Assembly: GCA_017404335.1 (NCBI GenBank)
Contig: JAFRCN010000002.1
Coordinates: forward strand, 101,821 to 165,820
DNA length: 64,000 nt
Direction: 5' to 3'
Source: Candidatus Saccharimonadota bacterium
Lineage (GTDB): Bacteria; Patescibacteriota; Saccharimonadia; Saccharimonadales; Saccharimonadaceae
Below are positions 9,488 through 63,812 of this stretch, piece after piece. The position numbers and the translations under genes were made by a program. The notes under the pieces are model-generated. The model had not been told where the DNA came from. It saw only the letters and a program-made list of their open reading frames with translations, and ran no database searches. The stretch's first letter is position 1, and every line of letters begins with the position of its first letter.

Positions 9488-9715
9488 ATGGAAATAGGAA
9501 ATTTTTTAGAAATTGTCGTATTTGTTTCAGCGATTTTAACGATTCTACTAATTCTTTTGCAGCAACGTGGAGCCTCGCTTGGCTCAGGCTCGGGTAGCTC
9601 TAGTGAACTATACACGAAGAGGCGCGGTCTTGAAAAGTCAATGTTTATCGCGACACTCGTGTGCGTAGTCGCTTTCGTTGGCTCGATTCTAGGATTATTA
9701 TTAATACCAGCATAG
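9488..9715 (+). CDS. secG: preprotein translocase subunit SecG
   Basis: 75 aa with two TM segments and LLQQRGASLGSGSGSS, which is typical of SecG. Confidence 0.8.
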   Translation: MEIGNFLEIVVFVSAILTILLILLQQRGASLGSGSGSSSELYTKRRGLEKSMFIATLVCVVAFVGSILGLLLIPA

Positions 9716-15297: not shown

Positions 15298-16383
15298 ATG
15301 GAGAAACTTTCAAATAAACTTGCGATTTTTGGAGCTATTTTACTCGCCTTGATGGCTGGAACCTACGCGGTTGGGCTAACAAAAACTGCTCGAGCAGAAG
15401 AACCTGCTGAAAAGGCCGAGGCGACGTCGGGCCAAGAAGGAAACGATACGAATGCCGTCGGAGGTATGAACATCAGCATTTCTCCGGTTAGTAAGATTCT
15501 TCAAATGGATAATAACTCCACCTATGAAGATAGTTTTAAGGTAACAAACGGCGGGAGCGAACCGATTGAGTTTGAAACCTATGCGGCACCATATTCATAT
15601 ATATATTCAGAAGAAACCGATTCATATTCTTTGGCGTTTAGCCACGAAAACAATTACACACAAATTACCCGCTGGGTGACTTTTAAGGATAGTGCAGGGA
15701 ACTGGGTGAAAAATCCGCGCTTTTCGGTTGGCGGTGGCGAGACTAAGGAAATCAGTTATAGAATTGTGACCCCGGGTGATTTGCCAGCTGGCGGTCAATA
15801 TGCAGTTTTGTTTGCTCATACGATTTCTAGCGCTAAAGCTGAGGGTGGGATAAAGACTGAAGCTAGCCCAGGGTTAGTGGTTTATGGTCGGACGAATGGC
15901 GAAACCAACGTTTCGAGCGAAATTAGAGATTTAGCGATAATGCAGACCATCAAGAAGGATAGTTTGGAGGAAGACACTGAAGGGAATCAGACCGTGGTTG
16001 CTAAGGAACTAGGCCACATTAATGCTCGCGCAAAAGTAAAAAATACTGGCAATATCGACTTTAACGCTGTTGGCAAGTTAACGGTTAGCGGATTGTTTGG
16101 CGGAACAGTTTACGAAACCCCGGCGAACCGAGGTAGAACCTCAATTATTCCGGAAACTGAATTAGTAGTTTCGGATGAATGGGAAGAGACGCCTCCGTTT
16201 GGCATTTTTAAAGTAACTTGGGAGGTTACGGCCGGTGAAAATACCGAAATTATTACCTCAATTATCGCAATCAATATCGCACCTCTGATAATTTTTATCA
16301 TAATCGTCTTGACAATTATGATTGTTGGGTTTATAATGGGGGTTAAGAAGCGCAAAGAGCGTAGGTCTAGATTCGCGGTCTAG
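15298..16383 (+). CDS. cell-surface protein with signal peptide and C-terminal TM anchor (DUF916/DUF3324-like architecture)
   Basis: N-terminal signal/TM segment, beta-rich body, and C-terminal TM plus KKRKERRSR tail. The family assignment is from memory only. Confidence 0.6.
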   Translation: MEKLSNKLAIFGAILLALMAGTYAVGLTKTARAEEPAEKAEATSGQEGNDTNAVGGMNISISPVSKILQMDNNSTYEDSFKVTNGGSEPIEFETYAAPYSYIYSEETDSYSLAFSHENNYTQITRWVTFKDSAGNWVKNPRFSVGGGETKEISYRIVTPGDLPAGGQYAVLFAHTISSAKAEGGIKTEASPGLVVYGRTNGETNVSSEIRDLAIMQTIKKDSLEEDTEGNQTVVAKELGHINARAKVKNTGNIDFNAVGKLTVSGLFGGTVYETPANRGRTSIIPETELVVSDEWEETPPFGIFKVTWEVTAGENTEIITSIIAINIAPLIIFIIIVLTIMIVGFIMGVKKRKERRSRFAV

Positions 16384-16443: not shown

Positions 16444-17367
16444 ATGAAAAAAACACAAAAGAGAATCTTTGGATTTTTCGGATTAGTGTTGGTCGTCGCG
16501 ACAACGTTTCTTGCGGCGAGTTTGCCTAGTTCGGAGACGTCCGCAATATCAACCGTAACTGATACGTTGACCGTAAGGGTGGTCAGTAGCGCAGCAGACG
16601 TTAATATAACAAGCCCAGAGTCGGGAATGGTAACGGCGGGCGCGGAGCAGACGTTTAAGTTAAATTATGCAAACGTAAATACGGTCACACTATTTTTAAC
16701 AAAAACAGATTTGGATGGGACAACACACACGTTTACTTTGGCGGTCTATAATACCGATTACGGAACGGGAGAGAAAGTATACAATATTAATCTGCAAGAT
16801 GCAGAGTACGGATATGGCGAATATGTAATTAGACTGCAAGGGGAAGGAACGACGGGGCTTGCAGACGAAGATTCGGTCGCATTCTCGTATTATCCTATAG
16901 TTGCAGAGGCGACGGAAGATGAGAGTACAGGAGAGACGGTTTTAAGCTTGGATTATGAGGCCTATGACCCTTCGAATCCAGACGGAACTGGAGAGGTGGC
17001 CGAGATCGAGATTAACGTGTACGATGAAAATGGGAATTTAGTCGAAGAGTTATCACCAATAAAGGTGACCCCGCCGGAAACTAATGTCGTAATTCCATTC
17101 AATGACTACGATTTACCAAACGGAACATACACAATTAAAACTATTGCTTTCGACAAAGACGGAGACGAATTATATAAGTCTTACGTTAATCATGTCATTC
17201 GGAAAAGAGAAGATATACCAGTGCCTAATACTGGCGGATTATTCGGAGCATTGAATATTTCCAGAGCAGATTATCTTATTACTGGTATAATAGTGTTCTT
17301 GCTAACTGGAATTTTCGGAGCAGTCTTTATCGCGAAAAGACAGAAGAAATCCAGCCGACGACGTTAA
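16444..17367 (+). CDS. secreted protein with a sortase-type sorting signal (VPNTG)
   Basis: Signal peptide. The C-terminus carries VPNTGG, a hydrophobic segment and a KRQKKSSRRR tail. Confidence 0.65.
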   Translation: MKKTQKRIFGFFGLVLVVATTFLAASLPSSETSAISTVTDTLTVRVVSSAADVNITSPESGMVTAGAEQTFKLNYANVNTVTLFLTKTDLDGTTHTFTLAVYNTDYGTGEKVYNINLQDAEYGYGEYVIRLQGEGTTGLADEDSVAFSYYPIVAEATEDESTGETVLSLDYEAYDPSNPDGTGEVAEIEINVYDENGNLVEELSPIKVTPPETNVVIPFNDYDLPNGTYTIKTIAFDKDGDELYKSYVNHVIRKREDIPVPNTGGLFGALNISRADYLITGIIVFLLTGIFGAVFIAKRQKKSSRRR

Positions 17368-26543: not shown

Positions 26544-28012
26544 AGGATTATCGAAACGAGAGACTTCGAAAACTAGAGGAGATTCGGGCGAAGGGAATTG
26601 ACCCGTTTCCAGCGAAGTCAAATCGAAATACAAAAATTTTTGATGTAGTAAATCATTTCGAGGAGAAAAAGGGGCAAGAAGTCTGTATAGCCGGGCGCAT
26701 CGTCGCGATTCGCTCGTTTGGGAAACTAGTTTTTATAAAACTGCGTGATTATTCGGGTGAAGTACAGATTTTTATGAAGGCAGTGGCGGACGAAACTCCA
26801 GCTGGGATGTTTGGCGCAAAAGAAGTAAAGCTACTTGATATGGGCGATTTTATTGAGGCTAGAGGAATTGTAGATAAATCTCAAACGGGCGAGATTTCAG
26901 TATTTACAGATTACGTTAGGCTTTTAACTAAGAGTTTAAGACCTTTGCCGGAAAAGTTCACCAATAAAGAAGAGCGCTACCGAAGGCGTTATGTCGACAT
27001 GAACGTCAACCCAGAAGTACGCGAGAGGCTAGTCCGACGGTCGAAGTTTTGGCAGGCAACGCGTGATTTTATGAATAAGCACGGGTTTATCGAGATTAAT
27101 GTCCCGATATTAGAGCATACGACGGGCGGAGCGGACGCAACGCCATTTACGACGCACATGAACGCCCTAGACGAAGATTTTTATCTACGAATTTCGCACG
27201 AATTACCTTTAAAGCGGTTGCTGGGGGGCGGGTTTGAGAAGGTCTATGATATCGGGCCGAGGTTTAGAAACGAAGGCGTGGATGATGAGCATTTGCCGGA
27301 GCATATTGCGTTTGAGGCGTATGCAGCGTATGAAAACTACGAAGACGGAATGAAATTCTACGAAGAGATGATGAAATATGTTTGCATGGAAACCTGGGGT
27401 ACTTTGAAATTCAAAGTCGGCGGATTCGAGATTGATTTAGACCAAGAATGGCCGAGATATAAATATGCAGATTTATTACGTGAGAAGTATAATGTTGATG
27501 TATTTAATCCGGACCGTGAACAGTTGATTCAGATTTTGTTGGATAATTGGAAGACTGAAGATTTGAAACGAGAAGAATTTAAGAAGAAACTCGAGAATAC
27601 CACTACACCGCACTTAATCGATGACGTTTGGAAGCTAATTCGTAAAACTTCGGCGGGGCCGTATTGGGTCGTAGAAGAACCCCTTAGTTTGTCGCCACTT
27701 GCGAAAAAGTCAACCGAAAACCCGCTGGTGACCGAAAGATTCCATCCGGTGATCGCTGGGACGGAAATGGGAAATGGCTTTTCGGAGCTAAACGACCCGC
27801 TCGACCAGCTCGAGAGATTCAAAGAACAGCAAGCCGCGCGCGACGCAGGCGACGAAGAGGCACAAATGCTCGACCAAGATTTCGTCGAAATGCTAGAGTA
27901 CGGTATGCCACCGGCCTGTGGCTGGGGTAACTCAGAGCGGAATTTCTGGCTGCTCGAGGGTGTTTCGGGACGCGAAGCGGTGCCGTTCCCAACCATGAAG
28001 AAGCTTGATTAA
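26534..28012 (+). CDS. lysS: lysyl-tRNA synthetase, class II
   Basis: OB-fold N-terminus, RRRYVDMN, FRNEG, and GMPPACGWG near the C-terminus. Confidence 0.93.
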   Translation: MLLEDYRNERLRKLEEIRAKGIDPFPAKSNRNTKIFDVVNHFEEKKGQEVCIAGRIVAIRSFGKLVFIKLRDYSGEVQIFMKAVADETPAGMFGAKEVKLLDMGDFIEARGIVDKSQTGEISVFTDYVRLLTKSLRPLPEKFTNKEERYRRRYVDMNVNPEVRERLVRRSKFWQATRDFMNKHGFIEINVPILEHTTGGADATPFTTHMNALDEDFYLRISHELPLKRLLGGGFEKVYDIGPRFRNEGVDDEHLPEHIAFEAYAAYENYEDGMKFYEEMMKYVCMETWGTLKFKVGGFEIDLDQEWPRYKYADLLREKYNVDVFNPDREQLIQILLDNWKTEDLKREEFKKKLENTTTPHLIDDVWKLIRKTSAGPYWVVEEPLSLSPLAKKSTENPLVTERFHPVIAGTEMGNGFSELNDPLDQLERFKEQQAARDAGDEEAQMLDQDFVEMLEYGMPPACGWGNSERNFWLLEGVSGREAVPFPTMKKLD

Positions 28013-29349
28013 AACCAAATTGCCATAGCCTTTACATCTATCTTGATGGGGTGGTTTCCGCTTAGGGAAGTTGAGAAATGATTTGTTCGGCTTATTTTAT
28101 CCAATACTTGCCCTTCGTCGAATAGATGGTAGTAATATGATTCATAGAGCCAACTTTCAAACGCCAGTCCTTGTTGTGCTACGTAGGTAGGCTCTAGATA
28201 GGTCCCGTTAATTGTGGTCAAATTACGACAGTTCGTAAGTGCTTCGTAAGATAGTTCATTATCGGATTCATCCAAAGGCGTAATAGTTAAGTAGGCACCG
28301 TAGTCGTAATTGCTTATTACGTTCTCCGTATTTTCAGCAAATAATTCAATGTGAATTCTGTCAGTATCAAAAATGTAAATTTCTTCGCCTGAGAGGTTGT
28401 TTTCTACCGAGTATATGTCGTCATAATTATTGTCATCTATATAAAGATAAACACCGCCCGTCCCTGCGGTATAACCATAGTTTACTACAATCTTGATTTT
28501 GCTGGCGCCATGAAAAACAAAATTTTCTATAATTTCTTCGTCCGTATAAGATCCCAACTGGACGCCACTGTTGTCTATGTTTGACGTTCTCATTATTTCA
28601 AATTGCTTCGTTTCGGTTTCGCAGGTCGCTGAATAGGTCACGACATTTTGATTCTGAGTTTTTTCTTCATCAAAGAAAAGATTTTGGTTGTTCCCGTAAG
28701 TTAGCTCAAAATCCCTCGTGACTTCTGGTTTTGGAGCGGGATGTATAGCTGGATGCACGAGAATATATTTAACTTTGCCGACATAGGTCCCGGCTGGTTG
28801 GGTAGCAGAAATGTAGGCTTGATAGGTGGTGGTAAGGGTTGTACCTTCGGCGTTTATCCCGACATCTGTAGAGGCTTCACGTTTGGCAACCATCATGCTC
28901 GCGCTTGGCACGGTATGAAAATTATCGAAATCGTTTTGAATCGTAATTGGATATGTTGCGCCCGAGGTAGCTTCTAGTTTCATTGCCCACTGGGAGTTAC
29001 CAGTCAAGGCAGTACCGGTTTGAATATCATGAGTTGAGCCTAAGGAAGAACTGGTCAACACATTCTTACCAAATTCGTCACCAGTAAAACCGACAGCGTA
29101 AATGGCGAAGCCTTCATTGTCGTTGCAAAAAGCCTTTAAAGTGGTGGAGCCAATATTAGAATTAGAAGCGCCATTTAATATCGTAGCTGTGTGGTTGTTT
29201 GTGCCAAGACTTGACAACGAACATGAAACTGGAACCGTAATTGACGCTTCACTGACAATGCTATCGGCTTTAGTGTCGTTTAAGATAAGAATAGCTATAA
29301 ATATGCTAAGTATTATAACTAAAATACAGATGTGTGTTTTGCTCTGCAT
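28009..29349 (-). CDS. secreted/anchored hypothetical protein, beta-rich
   Basis: N-terminal signal-anchor. AAGGAGG RBS and a TGCTATAAT promoter on the minus strand. Low CpG by eye. The stop overlaps the lysS stop by 4 nt. Confidence 0.6.
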   Translation of the reverse strand: MQSKTHICILVIILSIFIAILILNDTKADSIVSEASITVPVSCSLSSLGTNNHTATILNGASNSNIGSTTLKAFCNDNEGFAIYAVGFTGDEFGKNVLTSSSLGSTHDIQTGTALTGNSQWAMKLEATSGATYPITIQNDFDNFHTVPSASMMVAKREASTDVGINAEGTTLTTTYQAYISATQPAGTYVGKVKYILVHPAIHPAPKPEVTRDFELTYGNNQNLFFDEEKTQNQNVVTYSATCETETKQFEIMRTSNIDNSGVQLGSYTDEEIIENFVFHGASKIKIVVNYGYTAGTGGVYLYIDDNNYDDIYSVENNLSGEEIYIFDTDRIHIELFAENTENVISNYDYGAYLTITPLDESDNELSYEALTNCRNLTTINGTYLEPTYVAQQGLAFESWLYESYYYHLFDEGQVLDKISRTNHFSTSLSGNHPIKIDVKAMAIWF

Positions 29350-31539: not shown

Positions 31540-32535
31540 ATGAGCATGGTGGGCACAGATATTATTGACCAAGTAAAGCACCGTATCCGAGCGACAGATT
31601 ATCTTTCGGTAGCACAAATTTATCTAAAAGACAACTTCTTATTGACGAGGAAGCTGAGGACAGACGACATTAAACCGAGGTTGCTTGGGCATTGGGGGAC
31701 TTGTCACGGGATCAATGTGGCTTATGCCAATTTAAAAAGCTTTTACGGTGGGAATCCGAATTTTTCGTTTGTACTCGGACCAGGGCATGGGTTCCCGGCA
31801 CTTAATGCAAATCTTTTTCTTGACGGAGAATTATTTAAGGTCGATAAAAAAGCCAGTCTAAACTACGCCGGGCTAAAATATCTTTGCCAAGGTTTTTCTT
31901 GGCCGGACGGATTTCCGAGCCATGCGAGTCCTTTGACGCCGGGAGTGATTACCGAGGGAGGAGAACTTGGCTATGCGCTTGCGAATGCTTATGGAGTGGC
32001 TTTGGGACACCCCGAAAAGATCCTCGCGGTCCTAATCGGGGACGGTGAACTTGAAACGGCGACAGCTCTAGCTTCTTTACATCTTCGAAATCTACTTTCT
32101 GGTTCGAAAAACGGGCGAGTTCTGCCGATTCTACATTTAAACGGTTACAAAATTTCGGCACCATCGATTTACGCGCGAAAATCAGAAAGAGAATTAAACG
32201 AACTAATTCGTGGATTCGGATTTTCGCCTATTATGATTGACGGGGACGACCCGGAAGTTTTTCAAGAAGCCTTAAAAAACGGAGATGGGAATGAGGCGCC
32301 GTTCTATGTTCTAAAGACCGAGAAGGGAAAGGGCGGGCCGAACCGTTACCATTTTGCACATCAAGTGCCTTTAAAGAATCCAAAGACCGACCCAAATGAG
32401 TTAGAGCAACTTGAAGAATGGCTGGCGAATTACCGACCTGGAGAAGTTTTAGCGGAATTTAAGGAAAAGAATGTGTTTAGTAGTTCTGAAGATAAACTTC
32501 AAGAAGCGATAGAAGGGAGAAGAGATGATAGATAG
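31540..32535 (+). CDS. xfp: phosphoketolase, N-terminal (TPP-binding) part
   Basis: LGHWGT, GPGHG, EGGELGYAL, GDGELET and PILHLNGYKI are colinear with Xfp residues ~1-400. Confidence 0.85.
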   Translation: MSMVGTDIIDQVKHRIRATDYLSVAQIYLKDNFLLTRKLRTDDIKPRLLGHWGTCHGINVAYANLKSFYGGNPNFSFVLGPGHGFPALNANLFLDGELFKVDKKASLNYAGLKYLCQGFSWPDGFPSHASPLTPGVITEGGELGYALANAYGVALGHPEKILAVLIGDGELETATALASLHLRNLLSGSKNGRVLPILHLNGYKISAPSIYARKSERELNELIRGFGFSPIMIDGDDPEVFQEALKNGDGNEAPFYVLKTEKGKGGPNRYHFAHQVPLKNPKTDPNELEQLEEWLANYRPGEVLAEFKEKNVFSSSEDKLQEAIEGRRDDR

Positions 32536-33694
32536 GGTAGACAATCCGGGAACGGAAAAGTTCTCCTCAGCGGAGCGAATCGGAGAATTGCTACTCCAAG
32601 AATTTCGTGAAAATCCGTTATTTTATTTCTTTTCGCCGGACGAAACGACATCCAATCGGTTCGATATAATTTTTAAGGAAGAGAAACGAGCGTGGGGGCT
32701 ACCGGCGGAGACTTGGGACCTACCGGAAAGCGAAAACGGCAGGATTGTCGAAATGTTGTCGGAGAATGTTTTATTTAGCGTCATGACCGGACATCTGATG
32801 AATGGCGAGAAGGCGATGATGGGAAGCTACGAAGCGTTTTTTCCGATTATTACTTCGCAAGTTTTACAACAAATCAAGTTTATTAAGCAATCTCTAAATG
32901 TCGCCTGGCGAAAACCGTTGCCGGCGGTTAACTTGCTTTCAACTTCGACTTGTTGGCGACAAGACCATAACGGTTTTACACATCAGTCACCGGCCTTGAT
33001 CTCAACCTTACTTTCTAGTCCGTCGAATCTTTCGAACTGCATTTTCCCAGTGGACGACGTAGCGGCAGAAGAAGCGTTTCGGTTTATGCTAGATTCGATG
33101 AATGTTGTAAACCTTACAACATTTAATAAGAATCCTTTACCAAGATATATTGATTCGCACCACGCGAACTTTCAGTTCTTTAACGGCGGAGCTTCGATTT
33201 ACGAGTTTATTTCGGATGAGGATCCGGACTTCGTCTTCACTGCAGCAGGAGATATCGTTACGCACGAGACAATCGAGGCGATAAAAATCTTAAAGGAAGA
33301 TTTGCCCAACACGCGGATTCGATTCATTGGAGTTAATGCTTTGTCGTACCGCGCGATTGGAACAACGGAGAATAAACTGTCGAAAGAAAAGTTCATGGAG
33401 CTGTTCACTAAAGATAAACCGATCGTCGCAAATTTTCATGGCTACCCAGAGACTTTTGAAAATATTCTGGAAAATTATACCGAGAGAGGAAGACTTCGCG
33501 TGCATGGGTTCAACGAAGAGGGTTCGACAACTACGCCGTTTGAGATGCTTAGAAGAAATGCAGCTTCGCGATACGATTTAGCAAAAGACGTGGCGAAGGT
33601 TTTGATGCGCGAAGATTTGGTTCAAAAATACGAACAGATGCTAGAGGACAACCATGCTCATGCTATTAGATACGGCAAAGATGTGATACAATAA
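32525..33694 (+). CDS. xfp: phosphoketolase, C-terminal part
   Basis: SPDETTSNR, WRQDHNGFTHQ and HGFNEEGSTTTPFEM are colinear with the rest of Xfp. It has its own ATG with GGGAG 5 nt upstream and overlaps the N-terminal part by 11 nt in the +1 frame. Confidence 0.85.
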   Translation: MIDRVDNPGTEKFSSAERIGELLLQEFRENPLFYFFSPDETTSNRFDIIFKEEKRAWGLPAETWDLPESENGRIVEMLSENVLFSVMTGHLMNGEKAMMGSYEAFFPIITSQVLQQIKFIKQSLNVAWRKPLPAVNLLSTSTCWRQDHNGFTHQSPALISTLLSSPSNLSNCIFPVDDVAAEEAFRFMLDSMNVVNLTTFNKNPLPRYIDSHHANFQFFNGGASIYEFISDEDPDFVFTAAGDIVTHETIEAIKILKEDLPNTRIRFIGVNALSYRAIGTTENKLSKEKFMELFTKDKPIVANFHGYPETFENILENYTERGRLRVHGFNEEGSTTTPFEMLRRNAASRYDLAKDVAKVLMREDLVQKYEQMLEDNHAHAIRYGKDVIQ

Positions 33695-38846: not shown

Positions 38847-39134
38847 ATGGACATAAAACGCGAGGATATTTTGCATTTGGCTAGTTTGTCGAATTTCAAT
38901 CTGACTAATACTGAAATCGAAAGCTTAGGAAGGGATTTGCAGGGAATTATTAAATACATTTCGCAACTTGACGAACTCGATACCGATGGGGTTGAACCGA
39001 CGTATCAAGCTTTTGAGATGGAGAACGTTTGGCGAGAAGATGAAATTCTAGAACAAGAAGCTTCGCGCGAAGATTTGCTCGCGCTAACTAAAAATGAAAA
39101 AGATAATCAAATAAAGGTGCCAAAAGTATTATGA
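38847..39134 (+). CDS. gatC: Asp/Glu-tRNA amidotransferase subunit C
   Basis: 95 aa. HLASLSNFNLT...GVEPT is typical of GatC. Leaderless layout. Confidence 0.88.
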   Translation: MDIKREDILHLASLSNFNLTNTEIESLGRDLQGIIKYISQLDELDTDGVEPTYQAFEMENVWREDEILEQEASREDLLALTKNEKDNQIKVPKVL

Positions 39135-40585
39135 AAACTGCGAATAAAAAAGTTACCGCCGAGAGATTAGTGAGAGATGCTTTAGAAAAAGCGAAACATT
39201 TTTCTGATTATAATATTTTTACGTTTATAAATGAAGAAGGCGCGATTTTACGCGCGCGTGAAATCGACGCGAAGATTGCTAACGGTGAGAAAGTCGGGCG
39301 ACTCGCGGGAGTACCGTATGCCCTTAAAGATAATTTTCTTTCGCCTGATGGCGAAACGACGGCTTCGGCACATATTTTAGGTGGGTTTACCTCGCCGGTT
39401 ACGGCGACGGCGGTTGAGAAGTTAGAAGCTGAGGGAGCGATTATGATCGGGCGAACCAATTTGGACGCTTTTGCGCACGGATCGTCGACTGAGAATTCTT
39501 ACTATGGACCGACTTTGAACGCGTTTGACCGCAAGCGAGTGGCCGGAGGGTCGTCGGGTGGATCGGCGGTAGCGGTAGCGCTTGATATTGTTGAATTTAC
39601 GACTGGGACGGACACCGGTGGATCGATTCGTCAGCCGGCGTCGTTTAATGGAATTTATGGGTTTAAGCCGACTTATGGGACGATTAGTCGGTACGGCGTG
39701 GTCGCGATGGCGTCGTCGCTTGATTGTATCGGGTTCTTTACGAAAACGCCGGAAGATATGGATCTTCTTATGGAGATTACTGCCGGACGAGACCCGAAAG
39801 ATTTGACGACATTGCCCGATTACTACAATTCTATCGATAGGGATTCGCTAGGCGCGGCGTGTCCTTCGGACACGCTCCGGGCCGCTCTGGCCAAGTCTTC
39901 ATGTTCCGCAGAACACATCGCGCCTAGCGAATCCCATCGAATTGGAATTATCAAGGATTTCGATAATGAGTCGGTCGATAAGGAGATTCGAGATGCGCTC
40001 TTGAAGAAGTGTGAGATGCTGAAAGAGAAGGGATGTGAAATTGTTGAGCTTGAGATGCTGAGCCTCAAATATGCTTTGCCGGCGTATTACATTATTCAGC
40101 CGGCGGAGGTGGCGTCGAATTTATCGCGATACGACGGAGTGCGCTACGGATTTCGTTCGGAAAAGTCGGCGGATTTAGATTCTCTATATAATAATACGCG
40201 GAATGAAGGCTTTATGCCGGAAAACAAACGCCGGATTATGATTGGAAATTTCGTGTTGTCGTCTGGGTTTTACGATGCATATTTCTTAAAGGCGGCAAAA
40301 GCGCGGACTTTAATTATTCGTGAATATGAAAAGGCTTTTTCTAAATGTGATTTTATTCTAACGCCGGTTTCACCGAGCCCGGCTTTCCGACTCGGCGAAA
40401 AAGTTAACGACCCGGTCGCAATGTATCTTGAAGACGTCATGAGCGTGTCTCTAAATCTAGCTGGAATACCAGGACTTACAATCCCAGCGGGAAAGACTAC
40501 CGAAGGATTGCCGATTGGGTTGCAGCTAGTTGGTCCGAGGCGTAGCGATAAAAACCTAATAAAATTCAGTAAGGAGCTAATCTAA
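39131..40585 (+). CDS. gatA: Asp/Glu-tRNA amidotransferase subunit A, carrying a 32-aa in-frame insertion
   Basis: Amidase signature GGSSGGSAVAVA and TDTGGSIRQPA. The insertion is described separately. Confidence 0.93.
   Translation: MKTANKKVTAERLVRDALEKAKHFSDYNIFTFINEEGAILRAREIDAKIANGEKVGRLAGVPYALKDNFLSPDGETTASAHILGGFTSPVTATAVEKLEAEGAIMIGRTNLDAFAHGSSTENSYYGPTLNAFDRKRVAGGSSGGSAVAVALDIVEFTTGTDTGGSIRQPASFNGIYGFKPTYGTISRYGVVAMASSLDCIGFFTKTPEDMDLLMEITAGRDPKDLTTLPDYYNSIDRDSLGAACPSDTLRAALAKSSCSAEHIAPSESHRIGIIKDFDNESVDKEIRDALLKKCEMLKEKGCEIVELEMLSLKYALPAYYIIQPAEVASNLSRYDGVRYGFRSEKSADLDSLYNNTRNEGFMPENKRRIMIGNFVLSSGFYDAYFLKAAKARTLIIREYEKAFSKCDFILTPVSPSPAFRLGEKVNDPVAMYLEDVMSVSLNLAGIPGLTIPAGKTTEGLPIGLQLVGPRRSDKNLIKFSKELI
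39835..39939. repeat. GC-rich palindromic element inserted in frame in gatA
   Basis: 17-nt perfect inverted repeat: GGGATTCGCTAGGCGCG (39840-39856) with CGCGCCTAGCGAATCCC (39919-39935). Inner hairpin GCGTGTCC-TTCG-GGACACGC. Confidence 0.8.
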
Positions 40586-49647: not shown

Positions 49648-50325
49648 GTGGCGGATTTATATGTTATACATGGGTGGACCTACACGGTGGAGCCTTGGAA
49701 GACGACAATAAAGCTACTCCGCGAAAACGGAATTAGCGTAAAGATGTTAAACGTGCCAGGACTGACGGAGCCATCAAACAAGGAATTTACGATTGCGGAT
49801 TATGTAAAATGGGCCGATAAGGAGATCCCGGACGGAGCGATTGCGCTCGGACATTCGAACGGGGGGAGAATTTTAATGAATCTTTGTACGCTTAAGCCTG
49901 AGAAATTAAAATATTTGATTTTGCTCGATTCGGCGGGAGTATATGAGCCGACGGCGAAGAAGAAATTGATCGAAAAAATGGCGAAAATTGGTAAACCGCT
50001 CAAGAAGATACCGCTAGTCGATAAAGCTTTTCACCGAATTACCGGAACGACGGATTATTCGAAGGCGCCGGAGAATATGAAAAAGACGCTGGCGAATATG
50101 CTGGCGTCGGATAAGGATTTAGATTTTTCGAAGGTGACAACGAAGACGTTTATTCTTTGGGGGAAGAAAGACACAACCACTCCACCGAGGCATGCGACAA
50201 AGATTTATGAAGGATTACCGAATGCGGAGCTGAAGTTTTATGCGAATTGGACGCATGCGCCGTACATTTCGAGTCCGGAGGAGCTGGCGCGGGCGCTAGT
50301 GACGCTCATGGGGAGGATTAAGTGA
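49648..50325 (+). CDS. alpha/beta hydrolase
   Basis: GTG start, GHSNGG nucleophile elbow, 225 aa. Confidence 0.7.
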   Translation: MADLYVIHGWTYTVEPWKTTIKLLRENGISVKMLNVPGLTEPSNKEFTIADYVKWADKEIPDGAIALGHSNGGRILMNLCTLKPEKLKYLILLDSAGVYEPTAKKKLIEKMAKIGKPLKKIPLVDKAFHRITGTTDYSKAPENMKKTLANMLASDKDLDFSKVTTKTFILWGKKDTTTPPRHATKIYEGLPNAELKFYANWTHAPYISSPEELARALVTLMGRIK

Positions 50326-51608
50326 AGCATTATTTTCTTGGGATGGCGGCGAATTACTCGGGCGGTAAGTGGCTCCGGCATCTTTTTGCGGTGGGGCGAA
50401 AGAGGGATTATGATGAACTAGCGGAGTTTTTAGGAAAGAAATATGACGGGGAAGCGGTTTTGTGTAAAAACGGAAGGTCGGCTTTAGCTTTAGCTTTAAA
50501 GACCTATTTTCGGCCGGGAGATGAGGTTTTGGTTAACGGGTTTACATGCTATGCGGTTTATGAGGCCGTTAAGGCGGCTAAACTGAAGCCAGTTTTTGTC
50601 GACATAAACAAGCAGGATTTAAATTTTGATATTAAGACGCTCAGGAACGCTAGGTCCGGTCGATTCGAGGTCATTCGCGACAACGGGAGCGAGATAGCGA
50701 GCGAGCCCCGTAACGACGGGCGCGAGCGAAGCGGACCGAGAAGCGACTGGACTAGCGTTCAGGGGATTATTATTCAAAATACACTTGGAAATCCGGTGGA
50801 TATTAAAGCGATTGAGAGGTTTGCGAAGGAAAATGATCTTTTGATTATCGAAGACTTGGCGCACTCGGCGGGAATTAGATATCCGGATGGGAGAGAGGCC
50901 GGAACGGTCGGAGTGGCGACCGTCTTATCATTCGGAAAAGACAAGTCGGTTGATACAATTTCGGGAGGCGCGGTAGTGTTCAGGGGTGAACTTTTGTCAA
51001 ACTTTGGGGCGCGTCCGGCCGGCCCGTTGCCACGGGCGGCCGGCGCTACTCCTCGCGCTGCCGCGCTCCGGACCCCCTCAGTTTTGACAAAAGCTTCACC
51101 CAGTAAACTCCCAAGACTCCGAGATCATCTCAGAGCGAGGTTTTATCCGATGTTTGGGGCGCTGTGTCGGACGCTGTCCTATGTTCATTTAGGTGGAGTC
51201 TTGATGCGACTACTAGTTAAAATCCATTTGGTCGAAAAATCGGCGGATAATAAGCTCGATTTAGAGCGCAGAATGAGTAAATTCGAAGCAAAATTAGCGT
51301 TAGAACAAATCAAAAAATTGAAGAATAAACCGCTTAGGAAGTTTTATCTAGTAGACGACCGAGAGAAAGTTTTGAAAGAATTACGAAAAGCGGGATACTT
51401 TTTCGACGGGTTTTGGTACGAAAAGCCGGTCTCACCGGAGAGGTATTACAAAAAGGTGCATTTTCCGGAGGAGGAGTGCCCGAACGCGGTGTTTGTTTCG
51501 AAGCGTATTATTAATTTCCCGAATATTTATTCTAGGGAGGAGCTAGCGACGGCGCGTAAAATCATTGAGAAATATCTCATCAAGGAGGGTGCGGATGGAA
51601 AAAAGTAA
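50322..51608 (+). CDS. DegT/DnrJ/EryC1-type aminotransferase with two 39-aa in-frame insertions
   Basis: Family-like blocks (VNGFTCYAVYEAV..KPVFVD, IIEDLAHSAG, SFGKDK). The two inserts are described separately. Confidence 0.75.
   Translation: MKHYFLGMAANYSGGKWLRHLFAVGRKRDYDELAEFLGKKYDGEAVLCKNGRSALALALKTYFRPGDEVLVNGFTCYAVYEAVKAAKLKPVFVDINKQDLNFDIKTLRNARSGRFEVIRDNGSEIASEPRNDGRERSGPRSDWTSVQGIIIQNTLGNPVDIKAIERFAKENDLLIIEDLAHSAGIRYPDGREAGTVGVATVLSFGKDKSVDTISGGAVVFRGELLSNFGARPAGPLPRAAGATPRAAALRTPSVLTKASPSKLPRLRDHLRARFYPMFGALCRTLSYVHLGGVLMRLLVKIHLVEKSADNKLDLERRMSKFEAKLALEQIKKLKNKPLRKFYLVDDREKVLKELRKAGYFFDGFWYEKPVSPERYYKKVHFPEEECPNAVFVSKRIINFPNIYSREELATARKIIEKYLIKEGADGKK
50645..50760. repeat. GC-rich palindromic element A, in frame in the DegT-like gene
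   Basis: GAACGCTAGGTCCGGTCG (50645-50662) is an imperfect inverted repeat of CGACTGGACTAGCGTTC (50744-50760). The core contains CCCGT-aacg-ACGGG. Confidence 0.7.
50985..51100. repeat. GC-rich palindromic element B, in frame in the DegT-like gene
   Basis: GGTGAACTTTTGTCAAACTTTGGGG (50985-51009) is an imperfect inverted repeat of CCCCCTCAGTTTTGACAAAAGCTTCACC (51073-51100). The core is very GC-rich and self-complementary. Confidence 0.75.
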
Positions 51609-52665
51609 TCTAGAATGGGCGGAAATCGTCAAAAAGTTCCCGGAGGCGAATTTCTTACAGTCGCCGGCTTATGCGGAGATGAATAGGCTAATTGGCGAGA
51701 AAGTAATAATCGAGGATTTTGACGGGAAGGGGCGAGCGCTGATGGTTGTAAGAGAGGCAAAACGAGGAAAGTATCTCGAGATTCCGTGCGGACCGCTGAT
51801 CGACTGGAAGGATACAAGGCTGGTAAAGCGCGTCTTGAAGCGAATTAACGAAATCGCGAAGGCGGAAAAGTGTGTCTTCGTGAGGATTAGACCACAACTT
51901 TATAAAACTCCTGAGAATATGAAGATTTTGGAGCGGGCGGGGCTAAAAAAATCGCCGATGCATCTCGCGGCGGAACATACGGTGGTAATCGATTTAAGTA
52001 AAAGTGAGGATGAGCTACTAGCTAAAATGCGAAGACAAACCCGCTATGATGTCCGGCGGGCGGAAAAACTCGGAATTGAAGTACTAAAAAGTAATTCAGA
52101 GGAGCTATTCAAGGAATTTCATGGGGTGCAGGCGGAAACAGCAAAAAGACAAAAGTTTATTCCGCCGAGTTTAGAGACTTTGCTGGCTGAGAGAGCGGCT
52201 TTTGGCGATAACATCGCAATTTATGTAGCGACAATCGACTGGACGGGTCCTGCCGTCGCATCTTCCCCTGCGCGCGCTGGCGCGGGGGACCCCCAAGCGA
52301 CGTCACCCGTCCATGAACCACTATCTAAACCAATTGCTTATGGTCTCGTGATTAAGGACGGAAAGGAAGGGGATTATTACGAAGCGGCGTCGACGGATTT
52401 GAATCGGAAACTACCGGGAGCACATGCAATTCTATGGCGGGCGATGCGAGATTTGAAGGCTGAGGGCTATGAGCGATTTAACCTTTGGGGGATTGCGCCG
52501 GCGGGGCAACCGCACCACCGGTACGCCGGAGTGACAACATTCAAGACCGGCTTCGGTGGAGAGATTGTCGAATACGTCCCGGCGCATGACATGATTATTT
52601 CGCAGGTGCGATATTTAAAAAACTGGATAGTTGAAACGGCGCGAAGAAAAAGGAGACATTTATGA
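51595..52665 (+). CDS. FemAB-family peptidoglycan peptide-bridge transferase (paralog 1, with insertion)
   Basis: The start is taken at MEKSNLEW, 6 nt after AAGGAGGG. FemAB-like blocks include RRQTRYDVRRAEKLG. Confidence 0.75.
   Translation: MEKSNLEWAEIVKKFPEANFLQSPAYAEMNRLIGEKVIIEDFDGKGRALMVVREAKRGKYLEIPCGPLIDWKDTRLVKRVLKRINEIAKAEKCVFVRIRPQLYKTPENMKILERAGLKKSPMHLAAEHTVVIDLSKSEDELLAKMRRQTRYDVRRAEKLGIEVLKSNSEELFKEFHGVQAETAKRQKFIPPSLETLLAERAAFGDNIAIYVATIDWTGPAVASSPARAGAGDPQATSPVHEPLSKPIAYGLVIKDGKEGDYYEAASTDLNRKLPGAHAILWRAMRDLKAEGYERFNLWGIAPAGQPHHRYAGVTTFKTGFGGEIVEYVPAHDMIISQVRYLKNWIVETARRKRRHL
52240..52313. repeat. GC-rich palindromic element, in frame in FemAB paralog 1
   Basis: TGGACGGGT (52240-52248) pairs with ACCCGTCCA (52305-52313), plus GCCGTCGC with GCGACGTC. 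Inner hairpin CCCCTGCGC...GCGCGGGGG. The element is absent from paralog 2. Confidence 0.75.
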
Positions 52666-53687
52666 AAGAATTAAAAGTTGTCGACGCGGGTAGCCGAGAC
52701 GAGTGGGACGGTTTTATCAAGTCGCACCCGGAGTCGAATTTCTTGCAATCGTGGGATTTTTATGAATTTCACATTGCGCGCGGGAAAAAAGTCGTCAGGA
52801 GACTGTTTTTTAGCGGGGAAGAGATTGTCGCGGCGTATGCGGGCGTGGTCGAAACGGCGAAGCGGGGCAGATACATGGCGATTGCGGGTGGGCCGATTAT
52901 GGACTTTAAAGATTCTAATGTCGTAAAGTCGGTATTTTGCGACATTAAAGAGCAAGGGGAGTCTACTGGATGTGTTTTTGTAAGAGTTAGACCACAGGAA
53001 GAGCTTTCGGAAAAATCGCTTGCGCTAATGAAAGAGCATGGGCTGAAAAAGGCGCCGATGTATCTATCGGTAGAACACGCGGGGATTTTGGATCTTAGGA
53101 AGTCCGAGGAGGAAATTCTTGCGGGGGCGTCGCAAGGATTTCGGCGAAAACTGCGTAAAGCTGAGAAGTTGGACCTCGAAATTACGGCTAAAGCAAGCGC
53201 GTCCGAAATTGCCGATTTTTGCCGACTAGAGAAGCTCCACGCTAAACGTCAACAGTATGTCGCGTTTTCGGAAGAGTTTTTAACGAAACAGTTTGAGGCT
53301 TTCTCGAAAAACGATGAGGTGTTAATCTACACGGCGAGACTCGGCGACGAAATTTTGGCGATGAATTTTATGATTTTTTATGGTGCGGAGGCGAGCTATC
53401 ATTACGGAGTGTCGTCGGAGCTCGGGACTAAGTATTCGGCGGCGCCACTACTTCACCTTCGGGCGATGGAAGAGGCTCGGAAAAGAGGTTGTGTTCGATA
53501 TAATCTTTGGGGGATTGTCGGGCGCGAGGAGACTTCACATCGGTTTTACGGAGTGTCGGAATTTAAGCGGTCGTTTGGTTGCGAGGAGTTGAAATATACG
53601 CCAGCGCACGATTTGGTTTTGAAGCCGGTGGCATATCTTAAGAATTTAACGGTAGAAAAGGTGCGGAAAAAAATCCGGCACGTTTAA
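52662..53687 (+). CDS. FemAB-family peptidoglycan peptide-bridge transferase (paralog 2)
   Basis: ATGA overlap with paralog 1 and colinear with it (GFRRKLRKAEKLD). Confidence 0.75.
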   Translation: MKELKVVDAGSRDEWDGFIKSHPESNFLQSWDFYEFHIARGKKVVRRLFFSGEEIVAAYAGVVETAKRGRYMAIAGGPIMDFKDSNVVKSVFCDIKEQGESTGCVFVRVRPQEELSEKSLALMKEHGLKKAPMYLSVEHAGILDLRKSEEEILAGASQGFRRKLRKAEKLDLEITAKASASEIADFCRLEKLHAKRQQYVAFSEEFLTKQFEAFSKNDEVLIYTARLGDEILAMNFMIFYGAEASYHYGVSSELGTKYSAAPLLHLRAMEEARKRGCVRYNLWGIVGREETSHRFYGVSEFKRSFGCEELKYTPAHDLVLKPVAYLKNLTVEKVRKKIRHV

Positions 53688-53700
53688 AGGTTTAGATGGG

Positions 53701-54294
53701 ATGGCGAGTAGGAATCATTTATTGTCGCAACATTTCTTACGGAGTCCGAAGTTGGCGCTAATTTTGATTGGGCATTCGAATTTGAAAAAGCGAGATTTAG
53801 TAGTAGAGATTGGGGCGGGGAGCGGAGTGGTCACTTCGGCGTTGTCGCGAAGAGTGGCGCGAGTAATTGCGGTGGAGCCGGATGGGGAGGCAGTGGCGAA
53901 ATTGCGAGGCCATTTGTCGAAGCAAGGGTGTGAAAATGTTGAAGTAGTGGAGAAGGATTTTATGGATTTTGAATTGCCTTCCGAACCATATAAGATTTTT
54001 GCGAATCCGCCGTTTCATTTATCGTCGGCGATTTTACATAAGTTGATTGAGAACCCGAACCCGCCGGAAGCGATTTATTTGATTTTGCAGAAACAGTTTG
54101 CGCTAAAACTTTTGAATAATACTAGGCATTACACTTCTCAGCTGGGATTTACTTTAACGCGTGACTATGCGACAAAAATTCGACTGCCTTTAAAATCGTC
54201 CGATTTTACGCCGCCACCGGCGGTGCCGACGGTGCTGTTTGAAGCGAAGAGGATTGATTCTTTAGGCGCTGGTTTAAGCGCTAGCGATAAATAA
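53701..54294 (+). CDS. rRNA adenine methyltransferase family protein (Erm/KsgA-like), short
   Basis: SQHFL, EIGAGSG and NPPF motifs. 197 aa, so the usual C-terminal domain is missing. Confidence 0.6.
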   Translation: MASRNHLLSQHFLRSPKLALILIGHSNLKKRDLVVEIGAGSGVVTSALSRRVARVIAVEPDGEAVAKLRGHLSKQGCENVEVVEKDFMDFELPSEPYKIFANPPFHLSSAILHKLIENPNPPEAIYLILQKQFALKLLNNTRHYTSQLGFTLTRDYATKIRLPLKSSDFTPPPAVPTVLFEAKRIDSLGAGLSASDK

Positions 54295-54618: not shown

Positions 54619-54775
54619 GTTTTTATTGTAATACTAAAGTTTAGGCTTGTCAAGGGGTAAAACATTAAAGGATAGCGATAAATAAAAAAACGCTCATAAA
54701 AGCGTTATATTTCCGTTATAGCACAGATTGTAGAATTTGTCAAGTTTTAAGGGTTTGTGGTGGTATAATGATAAG

Positions 54776-56125
54776 ATGGGGAAAAGTTTTATCGCGATAG
54801 ATTTAAAGTCGTTTTATGCGTCAGTCGAGTGCGTCGAACGGGGGCTGGACCCTTTAAAAGCGAAGCTCGTGGTCGCGGATGAGTCGCGGACGGATAAGAC
54901 AATTTGCCTCGCGGTGTCGCCGGCCCTTAAGGCGCTCGGGATTCCGGGGCGGGCGAGGCTATACGAGGTGAAGCAAAAGGCGAAGGACTTTATCATCGCG
55001 GTGCCGCGGATGGCGTTTTATATCAGCTATAGCACGCGTATCTATAATATCTATCTTCGTTACATCGCGGAGGAAGATATGCACGTTTATTCGATTGATG
55101 AAGTATTTATCGACGCAACGCCGTATCTAAAAAACTATGGCTTGCCGGCAAAGGAGCTGGCGCAAAAGATTTTAAAAGAGATTTATGAGGAAACCGGGAT
55201 TACGGCGACGGCGGGGATTGGGACGAATTTGTATCTTGCGAAAGTGGCGATGGATATTTTGGCAAAGCACGAGGAGCCGGACGAAAACGGAGCGCGGATT
55301 GCAGAGCTAGACGAGATGGGCTATCGGCGGAGACTGTGGAATCACCGACCGCTGACGAATTTTTGGCGAGTCGGAAGGGGATACGCGAAAAGGCTCGAGG
55401 CGGCGGGGTTATATACGATGGGGGACGTCGCGCTCTGTTCGGAAAAGGATGAGGATTATCTTTATAAAATGTTCGGGGTGAATGCGGAGCTTTTGATTGA
55501 CCATGCTTGGGGATGGGAGCCCTGCGAGATTTCTGAGATTAAAGCATATCGACCAAGTGTTAATTCATTTTCCTCGGGCCAAGTTTTGAAGGAGCCGTAT
55601 AGTTTCGAAAGGGCGCAGGTGATCGCGCTCGAGATGGCGGAGGAGGTTAGCCTCGGTCTTCTATCTAAGAAGCTGACGACGGACCAGGTGATTTTAACGG
55701 TGGGGTACGACGTAACGAGCTTACCGGGATACACCGGCGAGACGAAAGCGGATTTTTACGGGCGGACAGTGCCGAAGCCGGCGCACGGGACCTATAATCT
55801 CGCGCGAGCTACGTCTTCGGCGCATTTAATCTCCGAGGCGGTAGTGAAGTTGTTTGATGAGAAAGTGGACCGAGAGTTAAAAATTCGACGACTAACGATA
55901 GACGTAAATCACGTAAAACGAGAAGGGGAGACGGAGCTAAGGCAACTAGGGCTATTCGATGAGAGAATCGACGAGAGTGAATTAAAGAAAGAAAAGCGAG
56001 CCGAGGAGGCGATGCTTAAAATCAAGAAGAAGTACGGAAAAAATGCAATTTTGAAGGGGATTAATTTCGAAGAGGGGGCGACGGGGAGGGAGCGAAATGT
56101 ACAGATCGGAGGCCACCGAAAATGA
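54776..56125 (+). CDS. Y-family DNA polymerase (UmuC/DinB/UvrX-like)
   Basis: The start is taken at MGKSFIAIDLKSFYASVEC, 6 nt after TGGTATAAT. The tracked TTG start at 54737 is rejected. Confidence 0.88.
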   Translation: MGKSFIAIDLKSFYASVECVERGLDPLKAKLVVADESRTDKTICLAVSPALKALGIPGRARLYEVKQKAKDFIIAVPRMAFYISYSTRIYNIYLRYIAEEDMHVYSIDEVFIDATPYLKNYGLPAKELAQKILKEIYEETGITATAGIGTNLYLAKVAMDILAKHEEPDENGARIAELDEMGYRRRLWNHRPLTNFWRVGRGYAKRLEAAGLYTMGDVALCSEKDEDYLYKMFGVNAELLIDHAWGWEPCEISEIKAYRPSVNSFSSGQVLKEPYSFERAQVIALEMAEEVSLGLLSKKLTTDQVILTVGYDVTSLPGYTGETKADFYGRTVPKPAHGTYNLARATSSAHLISEAVVKLFDEKVDRELKIRRLTIDVNHVKREGETELRQLGLFDERIDESELKKEKRAEEAMLKIKKKYGKNAILKGINFEEGATGRERNVQIGGHRK

Positions 56126-62965: not shown

Positions 62966-63129
62966 GCTATCCCCCTTTCATCCAAAACTAACTCATAAAA
63001 GAACTACAAGTATACCTGATACTCGTTATTATAATAATATCATAATTCTAGAATTAGTCAACTTTTTACGTGTAGTCTTGGTAAGAGAACAGAGGAACAA
63101 TAATAACGGTAATAATAAAATTGGATGAA

Positions 63130-63480
63130 TTAACTGTTCTTTTTGAGTTGGCCAATCATAGCAAAACCATCATAGTAGCGTTGCATCTTTATGGGGTCAG
63201 TATGCCAAGAATTATGGCCAAAAAAGTAATCGCAAAATTCTTCTCTTGCTACAAGGATTTCATGAAGACGGGCGGGACTATTCTGGTTTGCTTTGATGGT
63301 AAAATCAAAGAGTTCCAGAGCGCGATTGATAGCCAAACTCGCCCGCTCGTGCTTGCCTTTACTAGACCATTTCAGAGAACGGGATACTTCACTACCGATA
63401 TTGCCCATTTGATAAGTAATAGGCCGATTCAACCAATCTTGGCGAGCTTCGTCGCTATGGATATATTTCATTTCAACCAT
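63130..63480 (-). CDS. hypothetical protein (helical), second gene of a two-gene operon
   Basis: 116 aa. Overlaps the upstream gene by 13 nt. No family recognised. Confidence 0.55.
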   Translation of the reverse strand: MVEMKYIHSDEARQDWLNRPITYQMGNIGSEVSRSLKWSSKGKHERASLAINRALELFDFTIKANQNSPARLHEILVAREEFCDYFFGHNSWHTDPIKMQRYYDGFAMIGQLKKNS

Positions 63481-63812
63481 TTCGCGACTACTGCTTTAAT
63501 CTTGGCCTGCGTGTCCAAATCTTCAACACTGCGACTGCGATTATTCTGTGTAGGGCGGATATTAATCATAGAATCAAATTCTACCATTTCATTTATATTG
63601 TCTTCGTCCAAATATAAATTAATACCCCAAATATCATACTGGTCTGAGCCGTTTTCGAGAAGAAGTTGCTCGCATTCATAATGCATCGGAGCATCTACCG
63701 CTATGAGCTCGCGGTTAATATCCACCGCGGCCTTAATAGTGTCCTGGTCGATAAAATTCTCGGAAGCCTCGATTAATTCTTGTTTGGTGATAGGCGTTTT
63801 TAGAATTCTCAT
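63468..63812 (-). CDS. small conserved protein, DUF5674-like (assignment from memory)
   Basis: The start is taken at MRILKTPITKQEL, 6 nt after TACAAT. LWGINLY...FDSMINIRP..NRSR pattern. Confidence 0.55.
   Translation of the reverse strand: MRILKTPITKQELIEASENFIDQDTIKAAVDINRELIAVDAPMHYECEQLLLENGSDQYDIWGINLYLDEDNINEMVEFDSMINIRPTQNNRSRSVEDLDTQAKIKAVVAKWLK

Follow-up and report, generated by a model that had tools for sequence, protein, structure and literature searches.

A GC-rich hairpin inserted in frame in a saccharibacterial FemAB gene, interpreted as a member of a dispersed palindromic element family

A GC-rich segment inside a FemAB-family gene of a Candidatus Saccharimonadota bacterium is, judging from its homologues, a copy of a palindromic element whose family, here called F1, is dispersed. 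The gene, FemAB paralog 1 (51595 to 52665, plus strand; 356 amino acids from its ATG, in an open reading frame [ORF] that is open from a TTG at 51565), lies in a 64,000-nt stretch of contig JAFRCN010000002.1, referred to below as the window. It is followed by FemAB paralog 2 (52662 to 53687, plus strand; 341 amino acids), which overlaps it by 4 nt and does not have the insertion. Most likely, the segment is a non-autonomous, palindromic, GC-rich mobile element that lies in the codons of a FemAB beta-turn and is translated as a disordered loop.

Analysis of the sequence TGGACGGGTCCTGCCGTCGCATCTTCCCCTGCGCGCGCTGGCGCGGGGGACCCCCAAGCGACGTCACCCGTCCA bore out the 74-nt GC-rich hairpin that a first-pass annotation had placed at 52240 to 52313 and showed it to be a single long imperfect hairpin. 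Its RNA fold has a minimum free energy of −47 kcal/mol compared to −31.8 ± 3.2 kcal/mol for dinucleotide shuffles (z = −4.8; 0 of 200 shuffles equal), and the DNA folds of the two strands gave z values of −4.1 and −4.2. The GC content of this copy is 72 to 77% compared to 45% in the window, and the host gene around it is 30 GC points lower. On the plus strand, the outer stem is formed by TGGACGGGT (52240 to 52248) and ACCCGTCCA (52305 to 52313), and the middle stem by CGTCGC (52254 to 52259) and GCGACG (52297 to 52302). In the apical stem-loop (52264 to 52289), positions 52264 to 52273 pair with 52280 to 52289 around a loop at 52274 to 52279. The three stems that had been annotated are all paired in the fold, but the second is 6 bp long rather than 8, and the third contains one T.G pair. 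Similarly, the hairpin proper is 74 nt as annotated, but the coding insertion is 75 nt (52240 to 52314), that is, 25 codons specifying the peptide WTGPAVASSPARAGAGDPQATSPVH. Next to the middle stem is an asymmetric internal loop, CCTGC against TC, which is kept across the family, although the constancy of these columns is in part imposed by the search pattern, and the apical stem-loop is the part of the element that varies. A CGTC at 52301 to 52304 lies inside the element, with two of its bases paired and the other two in a bulge. With a covariance model (R1) built from 55 F1 members, the window copy scored 74.8 bits (E = 4.5e-11). No terminator-like call or T-run was found at the hairpin. A search of Rfam at gathering thresholds, covering the window and 12 loci, returned only tRNA, signal recognition particle RNA, and a c-di-AMP riboswitch, all elsewhere. 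A permissive search of 52200 to 52350 returned nothing at E ≤ 10, and one of a high-GC F1 copy returned only generic miRNA-hairpin noise far under the gathering scores. A suspected resemblance to the twister ribozyme was unsupported by these searches.

Alignments to paralog 2 and to related genomes show that the segment was inserted into paralog 1. As noted at first pass, paralog 2 aligns across the site without the segment (BLASTP, 35% identity, E = 4e-70), the gap falling exactly opposite WTGPAVASSPARAGAGDPQATSPVH. That this reflects a gain in paralog 1 and not a loss in paralog 2 was also claimed, and the outgroups agree: in 69 of the 79 loci orthologous to paralog 1, the site has a turn of only 6 or 7 residues (typically KTAEGEP), as it does in paralog 2. 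A protein search assigned the window to Candidatus Saccharibacteria; the species-level genome matches are mostly metagenome-assembled genomes (MAGs) of Candidatus Nanosyncoccus from ruminant guts, and the orthologues are annotated as FemA/FemB family, Candidatus Saccharibacteria. The closest relatives, P0003 to P0005 (94 to 95% identity outside the loop), have no insert; for instance, L001/P0004 is about 95% identical in amino acid sequence outside the loop and is empty at the site. P0002, at 88% identity, has the insert. Locus L002 has the same 75 nt with one substitution, a T to C that turns the T.G pair into C-G. Excising exactly 75 nt from the window copy leaves TIDEPLSKP, which is similar to the 9-residue loop KTAEPEEKP of L062.

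Further copies of the hairpin were found at unrelated positions. A scan for GC-rich hairpins in 82 related loci (0.6 Mb) found F1 homologues in the DegT-like aminotransferase gene that precedes the Fem genes, near residue 110, in forward orientation in L003 and L006 and reversed in L050. BLASTN of the window copy against these three gave E values of 7e-10 to 1e-6. When the copies are aligned, similarity begins and ends at the ends of the hairpin and the flanks are unrelated, and the outer stems show compensatory changes (TGGACGGGT/ACCCGTCCA versus CGGGCGGGT/ACCCGCCCG). Public metagenome contigs were then scanned with the pattern GGGTCCTGCCGYCGCA-N35-65-CGTCACCCG, which yielded 51 copies on 48 contigs against a chance expectation of a few at most. 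The pattern columns are invariant by design of the search, and the true family is certainly broader; the copies also have further sequence, the hairpin, and the reading frame in common. The same pattern had no match in viral contigs.

The contigs with F1 copies split into two groups, one of 40 to 49% GC and the other of 64 to 72% GC. One contig of the low-GC group encodes a tyrosyl-tRNA synthetase (TyrRS) that is 98% identical to an NCBI protein of Candidatus Saccharibacteria; tblastn of the low-GC metagenome contigs against the genes of the window was uninformative on taxonomy. In the high-GC group, one contig encodes an OdhA/Kgd fusion that is 92% identical to a protein of a Solirubrobacterales MAG. 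By these matches, the bearers of F1 are rumen Saccharibacteria and Solirubrobacterales-like soil Actinomycetota. With few exceptions, the copies are embedded in long ORFs that encode housekeeping proteins. The saccharibacterial host genes encode topoisomerase I (two different sites), PriA, TyrRS, cysteinyl-tRNA synthetase, aminopeptidase N, QueA, MurB, an exonuclease, and a class-V aminotransferase. The hosts of the high-GC group are OdhA and E2 (in the linker after the lipoyl domain), DnaX (tau linker), the N terminus of ParA, and an N-terminal extension of uS9, in ORFs with a coding signature (GC1/2/3 of about 0.7/0.5/0.85 to 0.9). Both orientations are used: 23 copies share the strand of their host gene, and 20 run opposite to it. 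A few copies are probably intergenic (L083, L089, L120, and L122), those of L083 forming a tandem pair (L083:2718-2788 and 2820-2890). Some short contigs of Saccharibacteria hold several elements, for example, L088 (two copies, on opposite strands) and L125 (two copies). In Solirubrobacterales-like contigs (for example, at L108:5727-5809, L114:2763-2836, and L130:1021-1103), the flanks are alike between unrelated hosts and read ..G.G[PA]AGP...SPAG[DE].. In high-GC copies, the element may reach past the hairpin or may favor linkers rich in Gly, Ala, and Pro.

Paralog 1 matches the FemAB profile (PF02388) in both halves of the protein, with E = 4.8e-37 and 128 bits against a cutoff of 24, which identifies it as a FemAB-family aminoacyl-tRNA-dependent peptidyltransferase, and its PDB matches are Staphylococcus aureus FemA (1LRZ) and FemX (6SNR). 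AlphaFold2, run with the orthologue alignment, gave a confident fold with a mean predicted local distance difference test (pLDDT) value of 84.6. The sole internal stretch of low confidence is the insert (residues 219 to 242; pLDDT of <50, about 31 to 33), which is placed at a beta-turn between strands 207 to 214 and 245 to 255. The insert is therefore predicted to be a disordered loop on paralog 1, and the predicted peptide across its junctions is ...YVATIDWTGPAVASSPAR...

This position raises the question of whether the loop evolved in place as a lineage-specific functional part of the enzyme, perhaps one that binds a substrate (tRNA or lipid II). In the alignment to 1LRZ, the insert site falls in the interval of about residues 218 to 311 of S. 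aureus FemA, where the staphylococcal enzyme has its coiled-coil arm. In addition, about nine species carry a different loop of 18 to 34 residues at the same beta-turn, with the common motif K[EQ]APSKxPxNR (L006, L008, L009, L012, L014, L022, and L037; proteins P0007 to P0011, among others). However, the same DNA element is found in unrelated genes and in both orientations, its presence varies between relatives that are 95% identical, and the loop is predicted to be disordered. The longer Fem loops of the other species, which may be decayed elements or functional loops, are neither GC rich nor hairpins (fold z values of −1.9 to +0.9). A functional loop that arose in place is thus improbable, and there is no need to assume a benefit to FemAB.

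In the 55-copy alignment, standard pairs occupy 97.3% of the pair cells compared to 85.4% in column shuffles (0 of 500 as high) and 37 to 59% with slid partners, and double-sided changes number 101 compared to 31 expected. The four outermost pairs are hypervariable yet complementary (the first pair is CG in 22 copies, UA in 20, and GC in 3) and adjoin the constant CGGGT/ACCCG. Because copies at the same TyrRS target site have different outer stems, these stems are not dictated by the target. The two strands are not equivalent: in 52 of 55 copies, a given strand of the element has the better fold, with an advantage of about 8.4 kcal/mol, and has G.U pairs where the other has C.A. A strong RNA structure with covarying pairs would also be expected of a cis-regulatory hairpin that affects mRNA stability or RNase processing or that makes ribosomes pause between folding units. 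But the advantage in folding does not depend on the strand of the host gene: it is +8.4 kcal/mol with the gene on the better-folding strand (n = 23) and +8.5 kcal/mol with the gene on the opposite one (n = 20). This means that the polarity of the hairpin belongs to the element and not to the mRNA. Together with the use of both orientations in coding regions, the intergenic copies, and the absence of a terminator-like call, this leaves regulation at the RNA level a poor candidate. The asymmetry points instead to a DNA-level signal, a single-strand hairpin, and not to a selected mRNA structure.

A very stable hairpin within a coding region might also go untranslated, either by intron-like removal from the mRNA or by ribosome bypass as in the yeast mitochondrial byp elements and the gap of phage T4 gene 60. 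There is precedent in the mitochondria of Magnusiomyces, where GC-rich palindromic clusters are bypassed. The reading frames of the F1 copies speak against this. First, 52 of the 55 copies measure 75, 81, 84, 87, 90, or 93 nt when one nucleotide is added to the hairpin, all multiples of three. Second, about 40 copies in real ORFs keep the frame of the host, and one specific frame is used per orientation: forward copies read xAGPAAA...SPAx, and reverse copies read xAGD(A/V)(A/V)(W/G)GT...AAAGPAx. Of the 55 copies, 53 have the used forward frame open, and 41 and 38 have the two others open; since the unused frames are still often open, the choice of frame is not forced by stops. Third, peptides in the used frames are rich in Ala, Pro, Gly, and Ser, with 4 to 5% Arg plus Lys and no Cys, compared to 20 to 26% Arg plus Lys, with Cys, in the unused frames. 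Finally, the ORF is continuous throughout the genic copies, with neither the frame break nor the stop of bypass elements or introns; there is no stop codon at the take-off site and no Rfam match to a ribozyme or intron. An exception is L117, where a 2-nt indel inside the element shifts the frame within it. Overall, the pattern fits selection on the translated product and speaks against splicing or ribosomal bypass, and an untranslated hairpin is improbable.

Three further in-frame elements, named F2 to F4, are present in the window, all on the plus strand. F2 (51000 to 51085) is in the DegT-like aminotransferase gene and encodes NFGARPAGPLPRAAGATPRAAALRTPSVL; it has 85% GC, a DNA fold z of −4.3, and a flanking inverted repeat, TTTTGTCAAA/TTTGACAAAA. 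Copies of it in both orientations are found in L001, L016, L028, L078, L037, L014, L054, L113, and L123. F3 (50669 to 50760), in the same gene, is a GC-rich repeat that encodes EVIRDNGSEIASEPRNDGRERSGPRSDWTSVQ; the window copy has only a short central hairpin and no long palindrome (DNA fold z = +1.3). F4 (39840 to 39935) is a 96-nt palindrome with 17-bp perfect terminal inverted repeats and a DNA fold of −38.7 kcal/mol (z = −8.9). It encodes DSLGAACPSDTLRAALAKSSCSAEHIAPSES in frame in gatA (amidase; ORF at 39131 to 40585), and copies are found at the DegT-like site in L004, L018, L001, and L047 (reversed). Related genomes contain homologues of F2, F3, and F4 alike at other sites and in either orientation, and there is no mutual similarity among F1 to F4 save for some overlap of F2 and F3. 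The Pfam DegT match of the DegT-like gene (50322 to 51608) ends after residue 225. The topA gene of L123 (topoisomerase I) holds two families, F1 at 10197-10267 and F2 at 9560-9632. Elements of the F2/F3 type are also found at the junction of the two Fem paralogs (L014:4034-4151, L030:3979-4081, L054:3987-4165, and L055:3982-4072), where they are either intergenic or an N-terminal extension of paralog 2.

Comparison among relatives gave some indication of how these elements move and disappear. From 52152 to 52391 (plus strand), the window is 90 to 100% identical to L002 and 51 to 83% identical to L001, whereas outside this patch (DegT, Fem1, and Fem2) it is 93 to 100% identical to L001 and 60 to 88% identical to L002. 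This reversal shows, by identity, that the Fem copy with roughly 100 bp on each side was exchanged between diverged Nanosyncoccus lineages by homologous recombination. A good example of repeated use of a site is TyrRS, which has a baseline length of 411 amino acids and in which a single site (IERIx|xTVVDN) holds F1 forward, F1 reverse, F2, F3, or decayed versions, depending on the species. In the TyrRS of P0244/L131, a 4-residue remnant (GAGE..AR) is consistent with deletion of the interior of the element, and the covariance model detected decayed F1 copies of 56 to 63% GC in L054, L063, and L131 to L133. The decayed copies and the deletion footprint thus show a life cycle in which elements arrive and then decay into ordinary loops or undergo partial deletion, with a few permissive sites being hit repeatedly.

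Two origins that involve no mobile element have little left to recommend them. If replication had switched templates at a quasi-palindrome, a single local inverted duplication would have yielded a near-perfect palindrome and might account for flanking codons that differ between filled and empty alleles. But homologues with the same asymmetric arms occur at many loci, including some in a second phylum, and the segment exceeds the gene around it by 30 GC points, so such an event is very improbable. An error of assembly or sequencing (a chimeric join, for example) might be suspected from the anomalous GC content in metagenome-derived data but can practically be dismissed, since the identical protein is found on 8 contigs, the diverged L002 was assembled independently (SRR19524251) with the same insert and one substitution, and the reading frame is intact.

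The reading that we favor, a mobile element translated with its host, can be put as a sequence of steps. F1 would have entered paralog 1, by landing or by recombination, within the codons of a surface beta-turn and would be read through with the gene as a 25-residue disordered loop rich in Ala, Pro, Gly, and Ser. The element may be adapted to coding sequence in that only in-frame copies located in loops outlast selection. It would move as a single-stranded DNA hairpin, and a structure-specific enzyme acting in trans, for example, a transposase of the HUH/Y1 type, may recognize the invariant inner stem and the asymmetric internal loop; such a mechanism is suggested because the strand asymmetry follows the element and not transcription. 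The high GC content in a 45% GC genome may be due to a constraint on structure, to an origin among high-GC bacteria, or to both.

Several observations weigh against this reading. The window holds only one F1 copy: BLASTN, a pattern search with 3 mismatches, and the covariance model with filters off found no second one. Nor does the window contain a transposase or other mobilizing gene, the 37 Pfam-scanned ORFs all being housekeeping or without a Pfam match and none being a RAYT (Y1 transposase). The window copy itself has little strand asymmetry (−2.3 kcal/mol), and the inner (middle) stem looks invariant in part because the copies were collected with an exact-match pattern. Translation of the insert is inferred from frame statistics. 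Finally, no target-site duplication or clean boundary can be defined, because the flanking codons differ in every filled/empty pair (the window versus L001, and the TyrRS of L088/L133 versus that of L132).

A broader and more tentative proposal is that F1 to F4 are hairpin transposons adapted to coding sequence (length divisible by three, two "harmless" frames, movement as single-stranded DNA, and a structure-specific enzyme) that colonize essential genes of the ultrasmall epibiotic Saccharibacteria, and that F1 has been exchanged with Actinomycetota. This may be so, although we hold it with much less confidence than the reading of the single segment. Actinomycetota is the phylum of the known hosts of Saccharibacteria, and if the proposal is true, F1 would be a molecular trace of DNA traffic between epibiont and host as well as a generator of new protein loops. 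To our knowledge, selfish palindromes that insert in frame have hitherto been a textbook curiosity, with almost all examples coming from Rickettsia. If our reading is right, the phenomenon recurs in a second reduced, host-dependent lineage, the Saccharibacteria of the candidate phyla radiation (CPR), with at least four families, and the same permissive sites are hit repeatedly in essential enzymes (TyrRS, TopA, GatA, and FemAB). The conserved core that F1 has in common with high-GC soil Actinomycetota would make cross-phylum transfer testable, possibly along the epibiont-host axis, and the conserved asymmetric hairpin could serve as bait for the mobilizing enzyme. Such elements would account for part of the length variation and low-complexity inserts in CPR proteins, could mislead gene annotation and structure prediction, and would be natural markers of recombination between lineages.

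Some other features of the window were noted. On the 3′ side of the Fem pair are a gene for a short (197-amino-acid) methyltransferase of the rRNA adenine dimethylase family (RrnaAD, Erm/KsgA-like; 53701 to 54294) and a Y-family polymerase gene (IMS; 54737 to 56125); a GC-rich, hairpin-prone stretch at 54896 to 54975 is kept in L001. In L002, the methyltransferase gene is followed by an ORF with a CdiA_C-type toxin domain (L002:3251-3649), where the window has other genes. Phosphoketolase (XFP) is encoded by two overlapping ORFs in different frames, 31540 to 32532 (XFP_N) and 32525 to 33691 (XFP and XFP_C), which could mean that the gene is genuinely split or that a frameshift or a sequencing error has divided it. 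Five ORFs of 186 to 487 amino acids had no Pfam match at E ≤ 1e-6 (6712 to 8172, 15298 to 16380, 16444 to 17364, 28012 to 29349, and 63121 to 63678).

Among known systems, F1 is most like the Rickettsia palindromic elements (RPEs), of which RPE-1 to RPE-10 are described (Ogata et al. 2000, Science 290:347, as summarized in PMC10969869 and PMC3733652) and which are found in frame within dozens of genes (PMC10969869). Both are short palindromic repeats that occupy in-frame positions in many housekeeping genes that are unrelated and still function, the genes with F1 copies being intact. In both, translation adds a peptide in a loop or at the protein surface; for F1, this is a prediction, in which the insert has a pLDDT of <50 between confident beta-strands in the AlphaFold2 model and the high-GC copies lie in natural linkers of E2/OdhA, DnaX, ParA, and uS9. 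Neither has an associated transposase (for F1, in the window), and both occur in a reduced-genome, host-dependent bacterium. The differences are in the hosts, which for F1 are not Rickettsia or other Rickettsiales but Candidatus Saccharibacteria/Nanosyncoccus and Solirubrobacterales-like Actinomycetota, and in size, the elements of the window being 74 to 96 nt long and 70 to 85% GC in a 45% GC genome and RPEs about 100 to 150 bp long. RPEs are AT rich. Unlike RPEs, F1 is common to two phyla and uses both orientations, in a comparison made by description.

Resemblance to the other known classes is more limited. Intragenic repetitive extragenic palindromes (REPs) of the GTAG and CGTC superfamilies are GC-rich stem-loops in tRNA synthetase genes, uvrA, and recB, where they encode 20 to 30 residues, and those of the CGTC type have no linked transposase (PMC3733652). 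Like these, F1 is a GC-rich stem-loop found inside coding regions, and a REP-style model of strand-specific recognition of a single-stranded DNA hairpin fits its strand asymmetry. However, REP units, which are 20 to 40 bp long, carry a terminal tag (GTAG or CGTC) that is unpaired and mostly lie outside genes (PMC3733652), whereas F1 is a single hairpin of 74 to 92 nt, has its CGTC internally at a bulge, and is mostly intragenic; it thus lacks the layout of REPs and of the bacterial interspersed mosaic elements built from them. With miniature inverted-repeat transposable elements, the elements described here have in common small size, the absence of mobility genes of their own, many dispersed copies, and inverted-repeat ends, F1 being an imperfect palindrome as a whole and F4 having the 17-bp perfect terminal repeats. 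Differences are that the outermost 4 bp of F1 vary between copies and that the elements have a strong bias to in-frame genic positions. Coding palindromes are also known from the mitochondria of Nematomorpha (PMC6649704), and GC clusters and byp elements from those of yeast. These and F1 are alike in being GC-rich or perfect palindromes within protein-coding genes of a low-GC genome, but byps break the frame and the ribosome bypasses them, whereas F1 keeps the frame and uses a specific one, and these are organelles rather than bacteria.

A full-text literature search found no description of such elements in Saccharibacteria/CPR or in Thermoleophilia. By the comparisons made, F1 is an RPE-like palindromic element tolerated in coding sequence and not a member of the RPEs or REPs, because of its other host phyla, its single 74- to 92-nt hairpin, its lack of a terminal tag, and its mostly intragenic location. 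The kind of element is already known from RPEs and intragenic REPs; what is new is its first sighting in Saccharibacteria, with one family in common with Actinomycetota.

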